Shown here in pieces: positions 5,091 to 25,502 of a stretch of DNA of 64,000 bases (its first letter is position 1; every line of letters starts with the position of its first letter). The notes beneath the pieces are model-generated. The model was not told the DNA's origin. It worked only from the letters and a program-made list of their open reading frames with translations, and did no database searches. This stretch comes from Candidatus Sericytochromatia bacterium (GTDB lineage: Bacteria; Cyanobacteriota; Sericytochromatia; S15B-MN24; UBA4093). The translations under genes were made by a program, and so were the position numbers. Where the stretch lies: positions 1 through 64,000 of the forward strand of contig JAKFBU010000026.1 of NCBI GenBank assembly GCA_036676985.1, given 5' to 3'.

Positions 5091-5630
5091 TTAGCCCGCG
5101 TAGTGGTAGCGGAAGACCACCGCGCCGGAGCCCGAGCCCGCCTCGGGCGTGAGCCGCATGGTGCCCGGATCGAGGCGCTCGATCCGGAGGGTGGCGAGGC
5201 CATCGGGCGTGCGCACGGTGTAGCGCGCGCCGGGCGTGAGGGGCAGCGGCCCCTGCTGGTAGGTGGTGGCCGCCTGGGGGGCGATGCCGCGATCGCTGCC
5301 GGCCTGGGTGTTGACCGTCACGTAGAACGTGTCGCCGTTGTAGAAGAAGGAGACGTCGCCGCGCGGGCCCATGCCGTCGTCGATGGGCCGGAAGCTGCCC
5401 GTCCGGAACTCGAAGCGGTCCGAGTGGAGCGGATAGCGCGGGTTGCGGTAGGTGATGGGGGCCGTTGCGAGCTGGGAGTCGGCCTCGGGCAGCTGGGCGG
5501 CCGCCGCGGGCGGGGCCTGCACCGTCCGGAGCGCGGCCGAGGGCGTGGTGGCGCCGGCAGGCGGCGTGCCGCAGCCTGCAAGACCCGCCACCAGAGCGGC
5601 CACACCCATCATCCCTATGACTCGACGCAT
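5091..5630 (-). CDS. Hypothetical lipoprotein
   Basis: Signal peptide with lipobox LAGC, Pro/Ala linker, beta-rich domain. Confidence 0.7.
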   Translation of the reverse strand: MRRVIGMMGVAALVAGLAGCGTPPAGATTPSAALRTVQAPPAAAAQLPEADSQLATAPITYRNPRYPLHSDRFEFRTGSFRPIDDGMGPRGDVSFFYNGDTFYVTVNTQAGSDRGIAPQAATTYQQGPLPLTPGARYTVRTPDGLATLRIERLDPGTMRLTPEAGSGSGAVVFRYHYAG

Positions 5631-5788
5631 CCTGGTACCATCCTTTACATGACGAGAGCCGGAGACCTTGGCTCGTTGCGACCGCTATTCGGCATTGCAT
5701 GCCGTTTTGAACCGGTCGGTGCTACTGAACGTAAACAAACGTAACAAGAGTGTTGCGAGATGTAAACAAAGGAGCGGCGGAAAAAACC

Positions 5789-6283
5789 ATGAAGCTCGAG
5801 TTTGCGGGGCCCCTGCGGCCCATCGATCAAGGCGCCATCGGAAAGGCCCGGGAGCTCGCCGGGGTTTCCCCGCGCCATCGCGCCATCGTGCGCTACCACG
5901 ATCACGCGGAGCCGGTGCAGCGCATGCTCAACGCCGTGGAGCCCGCCTCGTACGTGCGGCCCCACCGCCATGCCGATCCCGCCAAGCTCGAGGTCTTCCT
6001 CGCGCTCCAGGGCCGCGCCCTGGTGCTCACCTTCGACGACGCGGGGGCGGTGACGTCCTTCCAGGAGATCGCGGCCGCGGGGCCGTGCTGGGGCGTCGAG
6101 ATCCCGGCCGGGACCTGGCACAGCCTGGTCTCCCTGGAGCCCGGCACCACCCTCTACGAGCTCATCGAGGGGGCGTTCGAGCCGGCGAGCCACAAGGACT
6201 ACGCTCCCTGGGCGCCCGCCGAGGGCTCCGAGGAGGGCGCGCGCTTCCTCGCGGCGCTCCGGTCCCGCCTGCTCGGCGAGTGA
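5789..6283 (+). CDS. WbuC-family cupin-fold metalloprotein
   Basis: SPRHR..H..EPVQRMLNA..P.SYVRPHRH..K.E and IPAGTWHSLV cupin motifs. Confidence 0.85.
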   Translation: MKLEFAGPLRPIDQGAIGKARELAGVSPRHRAIVRYHDHAEPVQRMLNAVEPASYVRPHRHADPAKLEVFLALQGRALVLTFDDAGAVTSFQEIAAAGPCWGVEIPAGTWHSLVSLEPGTTLYELIEGAFEPASHKDYAPWAPAEGSEEGARFLAALRSRLLGE

Positions 6284-11030: not shown

Positions 11031-11086
11031 CTTTAGATTTTCTTAATCTGTCCTTAACTACCCTGGCTCCGGCGGTGGACTATAGT
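11031..11086 (+). promoter_or_regulatory. Three 11-bp-phased direct repeats (Pho-box-like) plus -10 TATAGT
   Basis: CTTTAGAT 11031, CTTAATCT 11042, CTTAACTA 11053; TATAGT 11081-11086. Confidence 0.55.
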
Positions 11087-14752: not shown

Positions 14753-16231
14753 TTAAGATTGCGATAACTCACCGACCCGGGCATGGGGCAGCATGAACGA
14801 GAAGGTCGTGCCCTCACCCTCGGTGCTCTCGACCGAGATCTCGCCGTGGTGGGCGTCGACGGCCTGCTTGACGATGGTGAGGCCGAGGCCGCTGCCGCCC
14901 TGGAGGCGCGATCGCCCGCGCGTGACGCGGAAGAAGCGATCGAAGATGTGGGGCAGATCGGCCGCGGGGATGCCGATGCCCGTGTCGCTCACCTGGAAGA
15001 GCGTGCCCTCGGGCGTCTCGAGGGCCTCCAGCGTGACCTTGCCGCCGTGCGGCGTGAACTTGACGGCGTTGGCCAGGAGGTTGACGAGGATCTGGCGCAG
15101 GCGCACCCGGTCGGCCGTCACGGGCAGGCCCGACGGCACCTTGAGCTCCAGGCGGATGTCGCGCTGGGCGGCCTGGGGATGGACCGTGGCGATCGCCTCC
15201 TCGATGACGCGCGCGGCGTCCAGGTCCTGGAGCTTCAGCTCGCTCTTGCCCTCGAGGGCCGCGAGATCCAGGAGATCGTTGACGAGCGCGTGCAGGCGGT
15301 CGAGCTCCCGGTAGGTATCCTCCAGAAAGGAGGTCCTCAGATCCGGATCCTCGGCGGCTCCGTCCAGGAGGCTCTCGACCAGCACCTTGAGGGAGGCGAC
15401 GGGCGTGCGCAGCTCGTGGCTCGCGTTGGCGATGAAGTCGCTCTTGAGGCGATCGGCCTCGATCTCGCGCGTGAGGTCGTGGTAGATGACGACATGGCCC
15501 ACCTGCACGCGGTCGGCGTTGTACAGGGGGCTGGAGAAGCGCTTGAGGAACTGTCGGGGCTCCACGAGCTCCAGCAGGTCGGTGCGCGGCTTCTCGGGGG
15601 CCTGGCGCATGCCCGCTTCGATCTCGCGCAGGCGCGCGGGCTGGGCCCAGCGATCGAGGAAGAGGTTGGCCGAGTCGAGGAAGGCCGTGTGCGCGCTGCC
15701 CGGCTGGGCCATCTGGCGCAGGGCGGGGTTGACCATGACGGCATGGAAGTCCAGGTCGTAGATGACCAGGCCGTCGGCCATGGAGTTGAGGACGGCCTCC
15801 AGCTCGTTCTTCTCGAGGATGAGCTTGTCGATCCGCATGTCGCGGTAGTGCTGCAGCTCCTCGGCGATCTGGCGCAGGCCCGTCATGAGGTGCCGGGCCT
15901 CGGTGGCGTTGGGCTCGGCCGGGAAGTTGAAGTCCCCGGTGGTGATCATGTCGATGGCGCGGTGCAGCCACGAGTACGGGCCCCAGATGGCGCCGCCGAT
16001 GGTGTAGCTGAGCGTCGAGGTGAGGACCACCGCGCCGACCCAGGCGGCGAGCGCCAGGGGCCAGGATCCCACGACCAGGGCCCCCTGCTTGGCCAAAAAG
16101 AGCAAGAGGAGGCCCGAGACCAGACCGGTCAGGGTCGTGACGCCGACCGTGACGGTTAAAGGCGGCTGTCCCGAGAGGGACAGCCGCGCTAGGGGGTTGG
16201 TGGGGCGCTTACTTTGCGGCCTCGCGGACAC
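14753..16231 (-). CDS. Sensor histidine kinase (2 TM, HAMP-like, PAS, HisKA, HATPase); PhoR/SphS-like
   Basis: FIANASHELRTP H-box, NLLANAVKFT, DTGIGIP, FDRFFR, GSGLGL; start uncertain. Confidence 0.92.
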   Translation of the reverse strand: MSARPQSKRPTNPLARLSLSGQPPLTVTVGVTTLTGLVSGLLLLFLAKQGALVVGSWPLALAAWVGAVVLTSTLSYTIGGAIWGPYSWLHRAIDMITTGDFNFPAEPNATEARHLMTGLRQIAEELQHYRDMRIDKLILEKNELEAVLNSMADGLVIYDLDFHAVMVNPALRQMAQPGSAHTAFLDSANLFLDRWAQPARLREIEAGMRQAPEKPRTDLLELVEPRQFLKRFSSPLYNADRVQVGHVVIYHDLTREIEADRLKSDFIANASHELRTPVASLKVLVESLLDGAAEDPDLRTSFLEDTYRELDRLHALVNDLLDLAALEGKSELKLQDLDAARVIEEAIATVHPQAAQRDIRLELKVPSGLPVTADRVRLRQILVNLLANAVKFTPHGGKVTLEALETPEGTLFQVSDTGIGIPAADLPHIFDRFFRVTRGRSRLQGGSGLGLTIVKQAVDAHHGEISVESTEGEGTTFSFMLPHARVGELSQS

Positions 16232-16922
16232 GGCGCTCGAAGCGGTAGCCCACGCCGCGCACCGTCTGGATGCGCATGGGGTTGTTGGGATCCTTTTCGA
16301 TCTTCTCCCGCAGCCAGTGGATGTGGACGTCCACCGTGCGGCCCTCGCCCGTGAAGTCGTAGCCCCACACCTGCTCGATGAGGAACTCGCGCGACAGGAC
16401 CTTGTTGGCGTTGAGGGCCATCAGCTTGAGGAGCTCGTACTCCTTGAGCGTCAGGTTGAGGACCTTGCCCGAGAGCGTGACCTCGTGGCGGGCGGTGTCG
16501 ATGACCAGGTCGCCGATCTCGATGCGATCGGGCTGGACCTGCTTGACCTCCTGGTAGCGGGCCACCAGGCGAAGGAGCGCCTTGATGCGGGCCAGCAGCT
16601 CACGGAGGCTGAAGGGCTTGGTGACGTACTCGTCGGCGCCGATCTCCAGGCCCACGACCTTGTCGATCTCCTCGCCCTTGGCCGTCAGCATGATGATGGG
16701 AATGGGCATCTCGGCGCGGATCTGGCGGCACACCTCGTAGCCGTCGAGGCTCGGGAGCATGACGTCCAGGATGACCAGGTTGGGCTTCTCGCGGCGGGCG
16801 GCCTCGACGGCTGCCTGGCCGTCCGAGGCGGTGGTCACCTGGTAGCCTTCCTTTTCCAGCGAGTACTGGATCGACTTCACGATCGAGGGTTCGTCGTCGA
16901 CGACCAGAATCTTGGCTGACAT
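16209..16922 (-). CDS. OmpR/PhoB-family response regulator (PhoB/SphR-like)
   Basis: ILVVDDE, LDVMLP, KPF; recognition helix RTVDVHIHWLREKIE; TVRGVGYRF. Confidence 0.93.
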   Translation of the reverse strand: MSAKILVVDDEPSIVKSIQYSLEKEGYQVTTASDGQAAVEAARREKPNLVILDVMLPSLDGYEVCRQIRAEMPIPIIMLTAKGEEIDKVVGLEIGADEYVTKPFSLRELLARIKALLRLVARYQEVKQVQPDRIEIGDLVIDTARHEVTLSGKVLNLTLKEYELLKLMALNANKVLSREFLIEQVWGYDFTGEGRTVDVHIHWLREKIEKDPNNPMRIQTVRGVGYRFERRVREAAK

Positions 16923-20858: not shown

Positions 20859-22193
20859 TTGCGCGCGTTGTTCCGCTGGCTGGCCATGCTGGGCTGCTGT
20901 CTGACCTGGCTCGCGGGCTCCGCGGCCTGGGCTCAGGCCGCGCGCATCACCGAGCTCGAGGTCCGGGGCCCCATCACGCCCGTGGTCGCGGGCTACGTGG
21001 AGCGCGGGATCCGGGCGGCAAACGACCAGCGCCTGGCGGCCGTGCTCGTGCGGCTCGACACGCCCGGCGGCCTCGACACCGCCATGCGCGACATCGTCCA
21101 GGCCTTCGAGGCCTCCGCGCTCCCGGTCATCGTCTACGTCACGCCCCCGGGGGCGCGGGCGGCCTCGGCGGGCGCCTTCATCACCATGGCGGCGCACGTC
21201 GCGGCCATGGCCCCCAACACCGCCATCGGGGCCGCGAGCCCGGTCGGGGGCGGCGGCGAGGAGATCAAGGGCACCATGAAGGCCAAGGTCACCAACGACG
21301 CCGCGGCCTACCTGCGCGGGATCGCCACGTCGCGCGGCCGCAACGCCGCGTGGGCCGAGCGCGCCGTCCGCGAGGCCGTCAGCGCGAGCGCCGAGGAGGC
21401 CGTCAAGCTCAAGGTCGTGGACCTGGTGGCGCCGGACGTCCCCACGCTCCTCGACCGCATCGACGGTCGGAAGGTCAAGATAGGCGATCGCACGGTCATC
21501 CTCAAGACGGCCGACGCGGACCTCCGGCCCTTCGAGATGAACGGCATCGAGCGCTTCCTTCAGTCGATCAGCGACCCGAGCATCGCGCTCTTGCTCTTGA
21601 ACATCGGCATGCTCGGCTTGTTCTTCGAGCTCTCCAACCCGGGCCTCATCATCCCGGGGGTGGTGGGCGGCATCTGCCTGCTTCTGGGCCTGTTCGCCCT
21701 GGGCACCCTGCCCATCAACGCGGCGGGCATCGCCCTCATCGGGCTGGCCTTCCTCTTGTTCGTCGCGGAGCTCTTCGTGCCGAGCTTCGGCGCGCTCGCC
21801 GTGGGCGGCATCATCTCCCTGGTGCTCGGCGCCCTCATGCTCGTCGCGCCCGGCACCCCCGGCTTCGAGGTCTCGCGGCCCCTCATCGCGACCATCGCCG
21901 GCTCGACGGGCCTCCTGATGGCGGCCCTCGGCTACATGGCCGTACGCGCCCAGCGCCGTCAGGCCACCACCGGCCGGGAGGGCATGATCGGCGAGACCGG
22001 TGAGGTGCGCCAGGAGCTCAATCCCGAGGGCCAGGTCTTCACCCATGGCGAGCTGTGGCGTGCCGTCTCCCTCGGTGGTCCCGTCCCCAAGGGCGCCCAG
22101 GTCCGCATCGAGCGGGTCGAGGACCTGACCCTCTACGTCTCGCCGCTCATCGACGCATCCCCCACGCTCCAGGAGGCCCCCCCGCATGATTAG
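20859..22193 (+). CDS. nfeD: NfeD family membrane-bound serine protease (long form)
   Basis: [24 protein letters not shown] region, C-terminal OB fold [12 protein letters not shown]. Confidence 0.93.
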
Positions 22194-22956
22194 TTTCCTC
22201 TCCAGCTTCTCCTTTCTCGTCGTCCTCGCGATCTTCTTCCTGTTCTCGGCAATCAAGGTCGTGCAGGAGTACGAGCGCGGCGTCGTCTTCCGCCTCGGCC
22301 GCCTGGTCGGCGCCAAGGGGCCGGGTCTCATCCTGCTCATCCCCATCCTCGATCGCATGGTCAAGGTGGACCTGCGCACGCTGACGCTGGACCTGCCGAC
22401 CCAGGAGGTCATCACGCGCGACAACGTCACCATCAAGGTGGGCGCGGTCGTCTACTTCCGCGTCGTCAACCCGGAGCACGCCGTCACCAAGGTCTTCGAC
22501 TTCGGCACGGCCACCCTCCAGATGGCCCAGACGACGCTCCGCAACGTGCTGGGGCAGTTCGCCCTGGACCAGCTCCTGGCCGAGCGCGAGACCATCAACC
22601 AGCGCCTGCAGCAGATCATCGACGAGAGCACCGAGCCCTGGGGCGTGAAGGTGAGCGCGGTCGAGATCAAGGACGTGGAGCTGCCCCAGTCCATGCAGCG
22701 TGCCATGGCCCGTCAGGCCGAGGCCGAGCGCGAGAAGCGCGCCAAGATCATCCACGCCGAGGGCGAGCTGCAGGCCTCCAAGACCCTCGCCGAGGCCGCG
22801 GCCATCATCGCCGAGGAGCCGACCAGCTTGCAGCTGCGCTACCTGCAGACCCTGACGGAGATCTCGGCCGAGAAGAATTCGACCATCATCTTCCCGGTGC
22901 CCATCGACCTGCTGCAGGGCCTGACGAGCCTCGTTCCGCGCTCCAAGCAGCCGTGA
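22186..22956 (+). CDS. Slipin / stomatin (SPFH) protein
   Basis: [51 protein letters not shown]; coupled to nfeD. Confidence 0.95.
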
Positions 22957-23018: not shown

Positions 23019-23051
23019 TGCTATACTCGGAACGGTAACGAAACGTTACCG
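23019..23051 (+). promoter_or_regulatory. Extended -10 promoter plus palindromic operator of the peroxiredoxin gene
   Basis: TGCTATACT 23019-23027 then CGGTAACG-aaa-CGTTACCG 23033-23051. Confidence 0.65.
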
Positions 23052-23084
23052 AGTGTTGCACCCCTTTACCTTTGGAGGTCATCC

Positions 23085-23567
23085 ATGCTGAAGGTCGGAG
23101 ACAAGGTCTCGGGTTTTCGGCTTGAAGGCACCCTGAAGGGTGAGAAGAAGTCGTTCGGTCTCGAGGACTTCCAGGGCAAGAACACCGTTCTTGTCTTCTT
23201 CCCCTTTGCCTTCACGCCTGTCTGAACGCGCGAATTGCCGGACGTGAACTCCCTGCTCAAGGAGTTCGAGTCCCGCAACAGCCAGGTTCTGGCTGTTTCC
23301 GCCGATAGCGTTCACACCAACAAGCAGTACGCGGAGTCCATGGGCGGTCTCGACTATCCCATCCTCAGCGACTGGAACCCCCACGGCAAGTGGACCCGCG
23401 AGTTCGGGATCTTCCTGGAGGATTCCGGCTGCCCGTCGCGCTCGACGGTCATCATCGACCCCCAGGGCGTCGTCCGGGATATCCACACCAACCCGATCGG
23501 TGAGGATCGCGACTTCAAGTCGACGCTCACTCGCCTCGACGAGATCAACCAGGCGGTTCGCGCCTAG
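23085..23567 (+). CDS. Peroxiredoxin (AhpC/TSA, AhpE-like) with in-frame TGA at the peroxidatic Cys; probable selenoprotein
   Basis: GGAGG RBS; MLKVGDK...VLVFFPFAFTPV[TGA 23223-23225]TRELP...VLAVSADS..YPILSDW..RSTVIIDPQGVVR in one frame. Confidence 0.88.
23240..23273 (+). promoter_or_regulatory. Candidate bacterial SECIS hairpin
   Basis: GGAC-gt-GAACTCC-ctgctcaa-GGAGTTC-ga-GTCC beginning 15 nt after the TGA. Confidence 0.55.
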
Positions 23568-23580
23568 GCGTGACTCCAAA

Positions 23581-23612
23581 CCGAACGGCCCGGCGCAAGC
23601 CGGGCCGTTTGG
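23581..23612. terminator. Hairpin between convergent peroxiredoxin and encapsulin cargo genes
   Basis: CCGAACGGCCCGGC-gcaa-GCCGGGCCGTTTGG. Confidence 0.7.
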
Positions 23613-23634
23613 CGTTCTGGGGGGGTGGGTCCTG

Positions 23635-23988
23635 CTAGATCGGCTGGCCCATGAGGCTGCCGACCGTGAGGCCGCCCGTCCACGTGGGAGCATGCGCCGG
23701 AGTGGCCGCTGCGGCCGTGCCCGGCTTGTGCGCGAGGGCCGCGAGGTTGCCCTCGGCGATCGCCGCACTGTGCTCCTCGCGGAAGGTGCGATCCTGCACC
23801 GGATCGTGGGCGCGGAGCATGGCCGTGAGCTCAGCGACATGCTCTTTCTCCTCGTCCATCAGGTGCAGCATCAAGGCGCGCACGCCCGGCTCGCTGGCCA
23901 GGTCGTGCAGCTCCTGGTAGTGGTTGATGGTCTCCAGCTCGCGCACCAGGGCCTTGCGGATGACGGCGAGATCCACGGGGGTCGGCAT
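23635..23988 (-). CDS. Encapsulin cargo, ferritin-like protein (Myxococcus EncB-like) with targeting peptide
   Basis: RELETINHY...HLMDEEKEH iron-ligand helices, Ala/Pro linker, C-terminal GGLTVGSL cargo-loading motif. Confidence 0.88.
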   Translation of the reverse strand: MPTPVDLAVIRKALVRELETINHYQELHDLASEPGVRALMLHLMDEEKEHVAELTAMLRAHDPVQDRTFREEHSAAIAEGNLAALAHKPGTAAAATPAHAPTWTGGLTVGSLMGQPI

Positions 23989-23991
23989 CGC

Positions 23992-24849
23992 TTAGCGCGC
24001 CCCCGACTCGAAGGTGCAGATGGCGCCCGGACGCTTGATCCGGAGCACGAGGCTCTCGAAGACCCGGAACGGGTGGTTCATCTTCTCCACGCCGAGGTAG
24101 GCGGTGATGAGGTCCTGCCCGATGGCGAGGTCGAAGTTCTGGATGCCCACCGAGAGGATGAGCCCCTGACCCTCCTTGAGGGCCGGCGTCTGGAAGACGC
24201 CTGCGGTCGCCAGCTCGCGGATGTGGTTGATCTCGAGCACGCCCGAGCTGGCGTAGACCCGGTGCAGCTGCGAGTACCAGACCGGGTTGACGATGACGGC
24301 GTAGGGGCCCGCGAAGCCCGCCTCGAGCAGCTTGGCGCGGGCGTCGACCACGTCCTGGAAGCCGTTGCCGGCCTCGGCCCAGTTGCGGGCGACCACCGTG
24401 TTGCGGCCCTCGGCGTTGGCCAGGCCGTCGTAGCCGCACTCCTCGTCGCCGTTGAAGATGAGGTAGTCCTCCTTCTGGGCGACGATCGAGGCGGCCGCCG
24501 CCGCGGCGCTCACGTCGATGGGGTGGTTGATCTGGCGGGCCGTCTCCAGGTCGCGCCAGTAGAGCATGAAGTCCTTGTAGACGATGGGGATGTTCTCGTG
24601 GACGCGACGCTTGGCGCGCACCATGCTGGTCTCGGTCTCCCCGAAGACCGCGACCTGGGCCGAGCCGGTGCCCGTGAACAGGTCGTAGTCGACGTCCTGC
24701 ACCCCGGCGCCGAGCGGGCCGAACACGTGCAGGAACCGGCGACCCACCAGGCTGCGGCGGGCCACGTCGACGATCGTGTTGTCGATGAGCTCCCACTCTT
24801 GGGACGTCAGCGGCGATTCGGCCCGATTGAGGTAGGCGGCGTTGTCCAT
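23992..24849 (-). CDS. Family 1 encapsulin shell protein (Linocin M18 / HK97 fold)
   Basis: YL.R.ESPLT..EW..ID..., LVGRRFL.V.GPLGAG, KDF.L.WRDLE, EDYLIFNG, FDLAIGQDL..AYLG, FRVFESL. Confidence 0.95.
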   Translation of the reverse strand: MDNAAYLNRAESPLTSQEWELIDNTIVDVARRSLVGRRFLHVFGPLGAGVQDVDYDLFTGTGSAQVAVFGETETSMVRAKRRVHENIPIVYKDFMLYWRDLETARQINHPIDVSAAAAAASIVAQKEDYLIFNGDEECGYDGLANAEGRNTVVARNWAEAGNGFQDVVDARAKLLEAGFAGPYAVIVNPVWYSQLHRVYASSGVLEINHIRELATAGVFQTPALKEGQGLILSVGIQNFDLAIGQDLITAYLGVEKMNHPFRVFESLVLRIKRPGAICTFESGAR

Positions 24850-24926
24850 GGCGGTTGGTACTCCTTCCGGTGGCTGCGATGGGAGGGCGGTGGTCGGGGT
24901 GCCACGTCGTCGTTACGCTCCGACGC

Positions 24927-24950
24927 GTAACAGGTCGTTACATGGTAACA
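24927..24950 (-). promoter_or_regulatory. Extended -10 promoter plus GTAAC-N5-GTTAC site of the encapsulin operon
   Basis: Minus strand TGTTACCAT (24950-24942) immediately followed by GTAAC-gacct-GTTAC (24941-24927). Confidence 0.6.
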
Positions 24951-25094
24951 CGCGACCCGGCCTCCATGCATGCTCCAGGGACGTCCGTTTCCGGGGTCGC
25001 CGCAGCCGCTCAGAGGGCTCGGACCGTGGTACAATCAAAGCCCCTGGTAGTCCGTCCTGGCCGCTGCCCTCACCGCCCGATTGGGGAGAGACCG

Positions 25095-25502
25095 ATGGTA
25101 GAACTCGAGCACCTGGTGGGCGCGATGGGCCATGCCCCGAGCGTCGTGAGCACCGAGAACACGGCCATCACCATGGGGTCCGGCGCCCTGCCGGTCCTGG
25201 CGACGCCCGCTCTGGTGGCGCTCGTCGAGCATGCGGCCGCAAGCGCCGTGACGAGCTACCTGCCGCCCGGCATGACGACCGTGGGCACCGGCGTCTCCCT
25301 GCGCCACCTGGCGGCCACCCCCATCGGCCACAACGTCCAGGCCGAGGCCGTGCTCGTCGCGGTTTCCGGCCGCCGGCTGGAGTTCAAGGTCTGCGCCTAC
25401 GACGAGCGCGAGAAGATCGCCGAGGGCACCCACGAGCGCTTCATCGTGGAGGCCGAGCGATTCATGGCCAAGATGGCCGACAAGAAGCCCAAGGGGAGCT
25501 GA
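25095..25502 (+). CDS. Hot-dog thioesterase, FlK (fluoroacetyl-CoA thioesterase) family
   Basis: TA..MGSG.LPVLATP.LVAL.E, TTVGT....HLAATP.G, GTHERFIV. Confidence 0.88.
   Translation: MVELEHLVGAMGHAPSVVSTENTAITMGSGALPVLATPALVALVEHAAASAVTSYLPPGMTTVGTGVSLRHLAATPIGHNVQAEAVLVAVSGRRLEFKVCAYDEREKIAEGTHERFIVEAERFMAKMADKKPKGS

Follow-up and report, generated by a model that had tools for sequence, protein, structure and literature searches.

Possible weak HLR1-type boxes at the promoters of a selenocysteine peroxiredoxin gene and an encapsulin operon in a genome of Candidatus Sericytochromatia

The DNA analysed here (the window) is a stretch of 64,000 nucleotides from Candidatus Sericytochromatia bacterium (contig JAKFBU010000026.1, positions 1 to 64,000). 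It contains two convergent transcription units: a gene for a selenocysteine (Sec) peroxiredoxin on the plus strand and an operon for an encapsulin and its ferritin-like cargo EncFtn on the minus strand. The palindrome GTAAC-N5-GTTAC is present at the promoters of both units. Judged from the sequence, both promoters may carry weak HLR1 boxes of the RpaB type in a repressing position, a reading to which we assign a probability of about 0.45. The palindrome had been regarded as undescribed in a preliminary description of this DNA. It is probably not a new operator, as its core is the part of the RpaB box HLR1 that does not vary, and the genome encodes an RpaB equivalog. Co-regulation of both units by one factor is plausible and, summed over all readings considered below, rather probable. 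The genome to which the window belongs (G000, in the following the host genome) is 100%-complete and comprises 4,676,872 bases with 67.3% G+C. It was compared with a set of 41 related genomes.

HLR1-like boxes and the RpaB orthologue

On the peroxiredoxin side, the palindrome GTAACGAAACGTTAC (23035-23049) lies within a perfect 17-nt palindrome (23034-23050). It is located downstream of the extended -10 element TGCTATACT (23019-23027, plus strand), which has no -35 element. Read as an 18-nt HLR1-like box, the site covers 23035-23052, about +1 to +18 of the transcription start site (TSS) predicted from this element. On the encapsulin side, the palindrome GTAACAGGTCGTTAC (plus strand, 24927-24941) immediately follows the extended -10 element TGTTACCAT of the operon (24942-24950, minus strand). 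The corresponding HLR1-like box (24927-24944, plus strand) is centred on the predicted encapsulin TSS. Two additional half-sites flank this palindrome. GTTAC at 24912-24916 forms a second inverted repeat with 24925-24932 (8-nt arms) and GTAAC at 24945-24949 is part of the -10 element. Promoters, palindromes and additional half-sites thus read as given in the preliminary description. A consensus scan detected no -35/-10 pair at the two promoters, which fits -35-less promoters of the extended -10 type. By visual inspection, an extended -10 element (TGnTAnnAT or similar) is found at the matching place in nine of the 12 relatives' encapsulin loci shown. A protein bound at either window copy of the palindrome would stand in the way of RNA polymerase.

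The HLR1 box consists of two 8-nt units, (G/T)TTACA(W)(W), which are 2 nt apart; it represses when located near the TSS and activates when located about 50 nt upstream, and RpaB is redox-responsive and controls antioxidant genes (PMC6525291). The core GTWAC is nearly self-complementary, so that an exchange of T to A at position 3 of the first unit turns an HLR1 box into GTAAC-N5-GTTAC. On this view, the exact palindrome would arise as a side effect of the core. The palindrome occurs 25 times in the 41 genomes (four copies in the host genome, three in G001 and 0-3 in the others). Its flanks lack symmetry and conform to (A)ATGTAACG-nnn-TGTTAC, the reverse complement of an HLR1 box with position 3 of one unit changed. 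Six of the 25 palindromes have one mismatch to HLR1, nine have at most two and 15 at most three, compared to chance rates of 0.06%, 1.2% and 9.6%, respectively.

An RpaB orthologue is present. The host genome encodes 13 proteins with an OmpR-type DNA-binding domain, and one of them (C25:43479-44216) reaches 337 bits with the NCBIfam model of the RpaB equivalog (cut-off 330). One RpaB hit with 323-343 bits is found in 39 of the 41 related genomes, in 28 of these above the cut-off, and the next paralogues do not exceed 252 bits. The cut-off of this model is passed in one of 14 named control genomes, that of Synechococcus elongatus. The PsbA and PsaA families have no match in the complete host genome. 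These findings fit a non-photosynthetic lineage that bears RpaB. Retention of rpaB has been described for Melainabacteria (PMC5877343). No paper on HLR1 in non-photosynthetic RpaB-bearing lineages was found in the literature searched.

The motif itself is enriched at its canonical spacing. Matches to at least 14 of the 16 HLR1 positions occur 46 times in the host genome at the 2-nt spacer, compared to 5-9 times at spacers of 0, 1 and 3-6 nt, and 43 of the 46 are located outside called genes. A position weight matrix (PWM) gives 138 hits of at least 16 bits at the 2-nt spacer and 24-54 at other spacers, but it was trained on the spacer-2 hits of the same genome, which makes this comparison partly circular. 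Counts also exceed those of a reversed-pattern control in the host genome (47 vs 13), in G017 (39 vs 11) and in G023 (62 vs 17). Genes near strong boxes of the host genome encode two KGG/LEA_5 stress proteins, phosphoenolpyruvate carboxylase, a DUF948 protein and many proteins of unknown function. One strong HLR1-like box, GTTACGTT-tg-TTTACGTT, lies in the window (5728-5745, minus strand, 14 of 16 positions), flanked by a gene on the minus strand (5091-5630) and by a gene for a DUF6016 protein (5750-6283). By these counts, an HLR1-like regulon in the host genome appears to be real.

Two of the three Sec-peroxiredoxin orthologues have upstream HLR1-like boxes (20.1 bits in G021 and 16.7 bits in G017), while only 1.4% of 589 upstream windows of the host genome reach 17 bits. 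The box in G021 is also among the 42 hits of that genome with at most two mismatches. In G001, which belongs to the same genus as the host genome, a 10.0-bit HLR1-like hit is located just after the encapsulin -10 element (7.3% of the null reach 10 bits or more). These two independent results raise the odds for an assignment of the window sites to HLR1. Furthermore, both window sites fall into the bin of 11.5-13 bits, for which 104 intergenic hits are counted at the 2-nt spacer compared to a mean of 66 at seven other spacers. This suggests that about one in three intergenic hits of the bin is signal. The other two palindromes of the host genome rank 7 (25.3 bits) and 109 (17.1 bits) of 532 PWM hits. 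The box centres are at about +9 (peroxiredoxin) and +1 (encapsulin) of the predicted TSSs, and the range described for repression is -38 to +23.

A number of observations weigh against the HLR1 assignment. Both window sites are weak: each matches 12 of 16 positions (four mismatches), and they score 11.7 bits (palindrome 1, rank 342 of 532) and 12.0 bits (palindrome 2, rank 314 of 532). By simple count, matches to 12 positions are at background level (295 at the 2-nt spacer, 214-289 elsewhere), and once the palindrome core is given, flanks of the quality seen in the window arise by chance in 37%. In the peroxiredoxin site, position 6 is not A in either unit. The additional half-sites at 24912 and 24945 are off the 10-nt period of HLR1. 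Regulators of the OmpR family normally bind direct repeats, but the peroxiredoxin site is a perfect 17-nt inverted repeat. No HLR1-like hits were found at encapsulin promoters outside the genus; in 10 of 12 relatives the best hits are below 10 bits. The third Sec-peroxiredoxin orthologue has no HLR1-like box, and the other peroxiredoxin paralogues of the host genome have no HLR1 hits either (best value 13.3 bits, at one BCP-like gene). Finally, the positions relative to the TSSs depend on -10 elements as the sole basis of TSS prediction.

If the HLR1 reading applies, the boxes would be bound by the RpaB orthologue, a redox-responsive regulator of the OmpR family, or by a close paralogue. Each box is on or just after the predicted start of a -35-less promoter, and the bound regulator would block RNA polymerase. 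Under redox stress, binding would be lost, and the Sec-peroxiredoxin gene and the encapsulin-EncFtn operon would both be switched on. The sequences, the gene identities, the insertion of the peroxiredoxin gene, the RpaB equivalog, the HLR1 signal across the genome and the HLR1-like flanks of most palindromes in relatives are observed. In the scheme built on them we infer where transcription starts, that the two weak sites are bound, in which direction control acts and what the signal is.

With the HLR1/RpaB system of cyanobacteria (Synechocystis 6803, S. elongatus), the window sites share the core of the unit and the 10-nt period. Further common features are the RpaB equivalog, the enrichment of the motif at canonical spacing and the location of the window boxes at the predicted TSS. 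Unlike these cyanobacteria, the host genome lacks the photosystem core families. Moreover, the window sites match HLR1 weakly (12 of 16 positions) and have the form of inverted repeats, and their binding is predicted from sequence. The candidate targets also differ from the known RpaB regulon; they are the Sec-peroxiredoxin, encapsulin, KGG/LEA-like and DUF948 genes instead of photosynthesis genes.

The palindrome as an element of its own

The 64-kb window contains exactly two copies of GTAAC-N5-GTTAC. Dinucleotide shuffles contain 0.01 copies on average and none of 100 reaches two; allowing one mismatch yields no additional match. The four exact copies in the whole host genome are all outside crude gene calls or in an over-extended start. 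Expected are 0.13 copies from the real half-site frequencies and about one from the same half-sites at other spacings. The other two copies precede genes for a DUF948 membrane protein (C48:31826) and a lipoprotein (C56:51277), which are not iron or peroxide genes. In G005 (locus L204, C58:18154), the palindrome is located inside a 35-nt perfect inverted repeat with 15-nt arms (CGATAGTGGGGTAAC...GTTACCCCACTATCG). Neither GTAAC-N5-GTTAC nor its variant spellings were found in the literature searched.

The site is not conserved in orthologous promoters. GTWAC-N5-GTWAC is absent from the encapsulin loci of all 15 relatives, including that of G001 with a 95% identical shell protein. The palindrome is also absent from the promoters of the three Sec-peroxiredoxin orthologues, where not even a half-site is found within 300 nt. 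The preliminary description had itself named a lack of conservation as a result that would refute its proposal, and this is largely what was found. At shorter distance both boxes appear to be kept, which counts in favour of the HLR1 reading. In a strain that is about 96% identical (run X9), the differences listed lie on both sides of each box and none lies inside. One inserted base at 24918 is an exception, and 15 further differences are not included in that list.

Another, separate regulator may bind the palindrome or GTWAC units as such, in line with the preliminary description. We regard this as unlikely, but it is the best of the alternatives. Candidates are a dimeric repressor of GTAAC-N5-GTTAC, an RpaB-like paralogue encoded 6 kb upstream together with its kinase, and a factor that acts on the GTAACG repeats of a polyhydroxyalkanoate (PHA) cluster. 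The paralogue belongs to a two-component pair (14753-16922, minus strand) about 6 kb upstream of the locus. The pair consists of an OmpR-family response regulator (16209-16922, minus strand, PF00486 match) and an overlapping open reading frame (14753-16231, minus strand), which by eye was read as its histidine kinase. With 247.7 bits on the RpaB model (cut-off 330), the response regulator is best classified as an RpaB paralogue. The same paralogue is found about 6 kb from the encapsulin gene in G004 and G007, and this maintained position speaks for a regulator of that kind. So do the exactness of the inverted repeat at both promoters (perfect over 17 nt at the peroxiredoxin gene) and the four GTWAC units within 40 nt of the encapsulin promoter, given that the density of half-sites across the genome is about one per 3 kb. 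By the ratio of observed to expected copies (4 vs 0.13), GTAAC-N5-GTTAC ranks 6th among the pentamer palindromes that are present at least three times. GTWAC units also serve as protein sites elsewhere in the host genome: in the PHA cluster of contig C44, at least seven promoters have GTAACG repeats (N6/N8) near the -35 element, and the cluster holds a 1056-aa regulator with an OmpR-type DNA-binding domain. However, none of the four genomic sites has an adjacent regulator gene, two of the four copies are better explained as HLR1 boxes, and the palindrome is missing from the orthologous promoters. One genus (g1) contains seven of the nine copies of its family (f1), so that a dedicated regulon would be tiny and young. 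Furthermore, the spacings at the encapsulin promoter (N10, N5, N3) are unlike those of the PHA cluster (N8, N6).

Slightly less likely still is a coincidence, in which the palindromes have no common function and GTTAC/GTAAC is abundant in promoters due to extended -10 elements of the type TGTTACnnT and to common HLR1 boxes. The DUF948 promoter illustrates how this may arise. Its GTTAC half is the extended -10 element TGTTACGGT, which is kept in five genomes of two genera, and its GTAAC half is genus-specific. At the encapsulin promoter, one half-site likewise belongs to the -10 element. Ten of the 25 palindromes have four or five mismatches to HLR1, which is about chance level, and half-sites at other spacings yield about one pair per spacing. 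Neither of the two sites is conserved, and in a very large scan rare coincidences are expected. On the other hand, two of the four genomic copies lie within 1.9 kb, each directly after a -10 element. A rough estimate gives a probability below 1e-3 for two chance sites in neighbouring promoters, before any look-elsewhere effect is considered. Four half-sites in 40 nt are also difficult to obtain by chance, and both boxes are kept in the ~96% identical strain despite nearby differences (the table of differences is incomplete).

An RNA element is very improbable. In that case an 8-bp GUAAC/GUUAC stem-loop at the start of the mRNA would stabilize the transcript or bind an RNA-binding protein. The 5' untranslated region (UTR) of the peroxiredoxin gene indeed has a hairpin at its 5' end, CGGUAACG-AAA-CGUUACCG (-15.4 kcal/mol, z -1.94, 7 of 200 shuffles as good), and the predicted encapsulin 5' UTR contains UGUUACGC-N6-GCGUAACG near its 5' end. 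The latter hairpin, however, is built from another pair of half-sites than the shared palindrome, and the predicted encapsulin TSS is inside the palindrome. As a whole, the encapsulin UTR is no more stable than its shuffled versions (z 0.10, 100 of 200), and no Rfam family matches either UTR.

Several known elements were considered and rejected. An SOS box was considered since a near-copy of the palindrome is located 222 nt upstream of recA, but recA has its own promoter nearer to the gene; two of three lexA-like genes carry boxes of the GAAC-N4-GTTC type and the third has none. A pair of back-to-back -10 elements fits the DUF948 locus and not the two window sites. An integron attC site or another insertion scar appears improbable, as the flanks do not fit. 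Membership in the TTAA-N7-TTAA motif (see below) was discarded as well: at the inner positions, which are C and G in the palindrome, this motif shows no base preference, and its genes encode secreted hydrolases. A general enrichment of the units is not observed (TGTAACG 69 vs 64.6 expected, TGTTACG 48 vs 50.2 expected). The logic proposed for the locus, one repressor that couples peroxide removal to iron sequestration, is that of the PerR, OxyR and Fur regulons. The window site does not appear to resemble the PerR/Fur 7-1-7 and OxyR boxes, and no gene for such a regulator is near the locus.

Genes of the locus and their history

The peroxiredoxin gene (23085-23567, plus strand) encodes an AhpE-like protein of 160 aa (PF00578, 4.6e-31), whose closest solved structure is M. 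tuberculosis AhpE (1xxu, 7.8e-23). An in-frame TGA (23223-23225) occupies the position of the peroxidatic Cys (FTPV-U-TRE, in a T/S-x-x-C motif). It is retained in all four orthologues, three of which are in other genomes and 60-64% identical. A stem-loop resembling a Sec insertion sequence (SECIS; 23230-23282, plus strand) begins in the first bases after the UGA. Its minimum free energy is -26.5 kcal/mol (z -3.13). The apical stem (23245-23268), about 20 nt downstream, is conserved in the four orthologues with compensatory changes at two pairs; the element has no match in Rfam. SelA, the wing domain of SelB and tRNA-Sec (C62:9407-9501) are encoded on contig C62 of the host genome. Taken together, the assignment as a selenoprotein is sound. 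Two RNA libraries hold 151-nt contigs of the peroxiredoxin gene alone, which indicates presence and not regulation.

Sec-peroxiredoxins are a described bacterial selenoprotein family whose peroxidatic residue is Sec instead of Cys, within a T/S-x-x-U motif (Zhang et al. 2006, PMC1794560). The window protein agrees with this family in the motif, in the SECIS after the UGA and in the presence of selA, selB and tRNA-Sec in the genome. It differs in that it comes from the AhpE-like branch and in that its host is apparently rich in Sec thiol peroxidases. Three more genes of the AhpC-TSA/thioredoxin fold in the host genome have one in-frame TGA at the position of the active-site Cys (C41:21442-21813, C23:185300-185674 and C23:238057-238404, with the motifs TPG-U-T, TPG-U-E and W-U-GAC, respectively). 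The host genome has no match to a catalase family and a single match to classical ferritin-like proteins. The host may depend heavily on Sec thiol peroxidases.

The encapsulin shell gene (23992-24849, minus strand) encodes a Family 1 protein of 285 aa (PF04454, 2.1e-70, 237 bits with a cut-off of 24.3), which is closest to M. xanthus EncA (4pt2, 1.9e-98). The cargo gene (23635-23988, minus strand) is located 3 nt downstream and encodes an EncFtn-like protein of 117 aa (PF22277, 7.2e-10, 39 bits with a cut-off of 27) that matches M. xanthus EncB (7s5c, 2.4e-11). Its C-terminal targeting tail is LTVGSLMGQPI, and TVGS[LM] follows a variable linker in all ten aligned orthologues. The motifs RELETINxYQ and EEKEHVAEL are conserved across orthologues; we take their conserved Glu and His residues to be the metal ligands. 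By these matches, the locus is considered to encode a Family 1 encapsulin with EncFtn cargo. The gene identities given in the preliminary description, Sec-peroxiredoxin, Family 1 encapsulin and ferritin-like cargo, are borne out by Pfam, by the structure matches and by the Sec machinery.

Compared to Myxococcus xanthus EncA with EncB, EncC and EncD, the window shell is closest to EncA and the cargo is closest to EncB and likewise ends in a TVGSL-type tail. Presumably, the M. xanthus cargo gene is also located downstream of the shell gene. In contrast to that system, a single cargo gene is seen at the window locus, its neighbour is a selenoprotein peroxidase, and the compartment is predicted from its genes. 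Encapsulin is present in 15 of the 41 genomes, and EncFtn follows it in this clade. In loci L003-L012 and L018 the EncFtn gene is downstream of the shell gene. L013 and L014 show the opposite order: there, a cargo-like gene whose product has a tail of the targeting type lies upstream.

The two units meet at a common G+C-rich terminator hairpin (23586-23602, a terminator-like match in the scan), as the preliminary description had it. Upstream of the peroxiredoxin gene lies an SPFH/Band 7 gene (22186-22956, plus strand, PF01145, 5.7e-41), which is the ancestral neighbour of the cargo gene. Beyond the encapsulin promoter, a divergent gene (25097-25502) has the extended -10 element TGGTACAAT (25027-25035, plus strand), which is conserved in relatives. 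This gene has no Pfam match and may be thioesterase-like.

The synteny of peroxiredoxin, EncFtn and encapsulin genes is unique to the host genome: among the 41 genomes searched, a Sec-peroxiredoxin gene lies beside encapsulin in this one only. A search for related loci with the peroxiredoxin yielded only distant matches (27-41% identity), mostly from Bacteroidota. In the loci of five relatives the SPFH gene adjoins EncFtn convergently with no peroxiredoxin gene in between, and in G004 and G007 a single terminator hairpin, matching that of the window, separates EncFtn and SPFH. On account of this arrangement, the peroxiredoxin gene with its own promoter is a single-gene insertion between the SPFH stop codon and the old terminator, confined to the lineage of the host genome. 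The pairing of peroxiredoxin and encapsulin is recent. In another family of the order, an unrelated Cys-type 2-Cys peroxiredoxin gene (G016, locus L011, contig C11, 2738-3337) is divergent from an encapsulin-EncFtn operon. This is a second, independent neighbourhood of peroxiredoxin and encapsulin and weighs against a purely accidental pairing. A literature search for encapsulin with peroxiredoxin or selenocysteine returned no paper containing "encapsulin" among the matches listed, and one for encapsulin with operator, repressor or promoter returned nothing specific.

Of the co-regulated module suggested in the preliminary description, the parts, the promoters, the common terminator and the rare palindrome stand; the conservation of the site and of the gene pair does not. 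A new anti-Fenton operon with a new operator does not hold. The parts are of known kinds and their pairing is an insertion accident of one species.

Other intergenic motifs and biological meaning

Other motifs were encountered in the intergenic regions of the host genome. TTAA-N7-TTAA is very strong, with 101 copies at N7 compared to 1-18 at N3-N13 and to five for the reversed control; one copy is in the window near 11044. It is often arranged in tandem at an 11-nt phase, has no other base preference and is enriched across the order, but not in families of lower G+C content. The downstream genes encode mostly secreted hydrolases (two subtilases, two M14 carboxypeptidases, a clostripain-like protease and a nuclease/phosphatase). 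The motif looks like a candidate box of a global OmpR-type regulator. The PHA-like cluster (L031, C44:41500-59500) includes PhaC/PhaE-like, reductase and acyl-CoA ligase genes, named by eye. In at least seven of its promoters, two or three GTAACG units with N8/N6 spacing are directly upstream of the -35 element, and its 1056-aa regulator resembles a SARP-type activator. The most over-represented intergenic heptamer is AACCGTT/AACGGTT (204 observed, 92 expected), followed by GCGATCG (1237 observed, 896 expected).

With regard to the organism, an orthologue of RpaB persists together with an HLR1-like motif in a whole class of non-photosynthetic genomes. In the window, this motif or a weak version of it coincides with the predicted transcription starts of the genes for a selenoprotein peroxidase and an iron-storing cage. 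It is conceivable, if rather doubtful, that RpaB/HLR1 runs a redox and dormancy stress regulon in this photosystem-less lineage, including the Sec-peroxiredoxin, the encapsulated ferritin and the KGG/LEA-like and DUF948 proteins. If so, redox sensing by RpaB would be older than, or independent of, oxygenic photosynthesis, and newly acquired antioxidant genes would have been wired into the regulon via weak boxes at their start sites. Confirmed binding at these boxes would provide a handle on the role of RpaB before or without photosynthesis, and would illustrate how a regulon already in place takes up genes gained by horizontal transfer.

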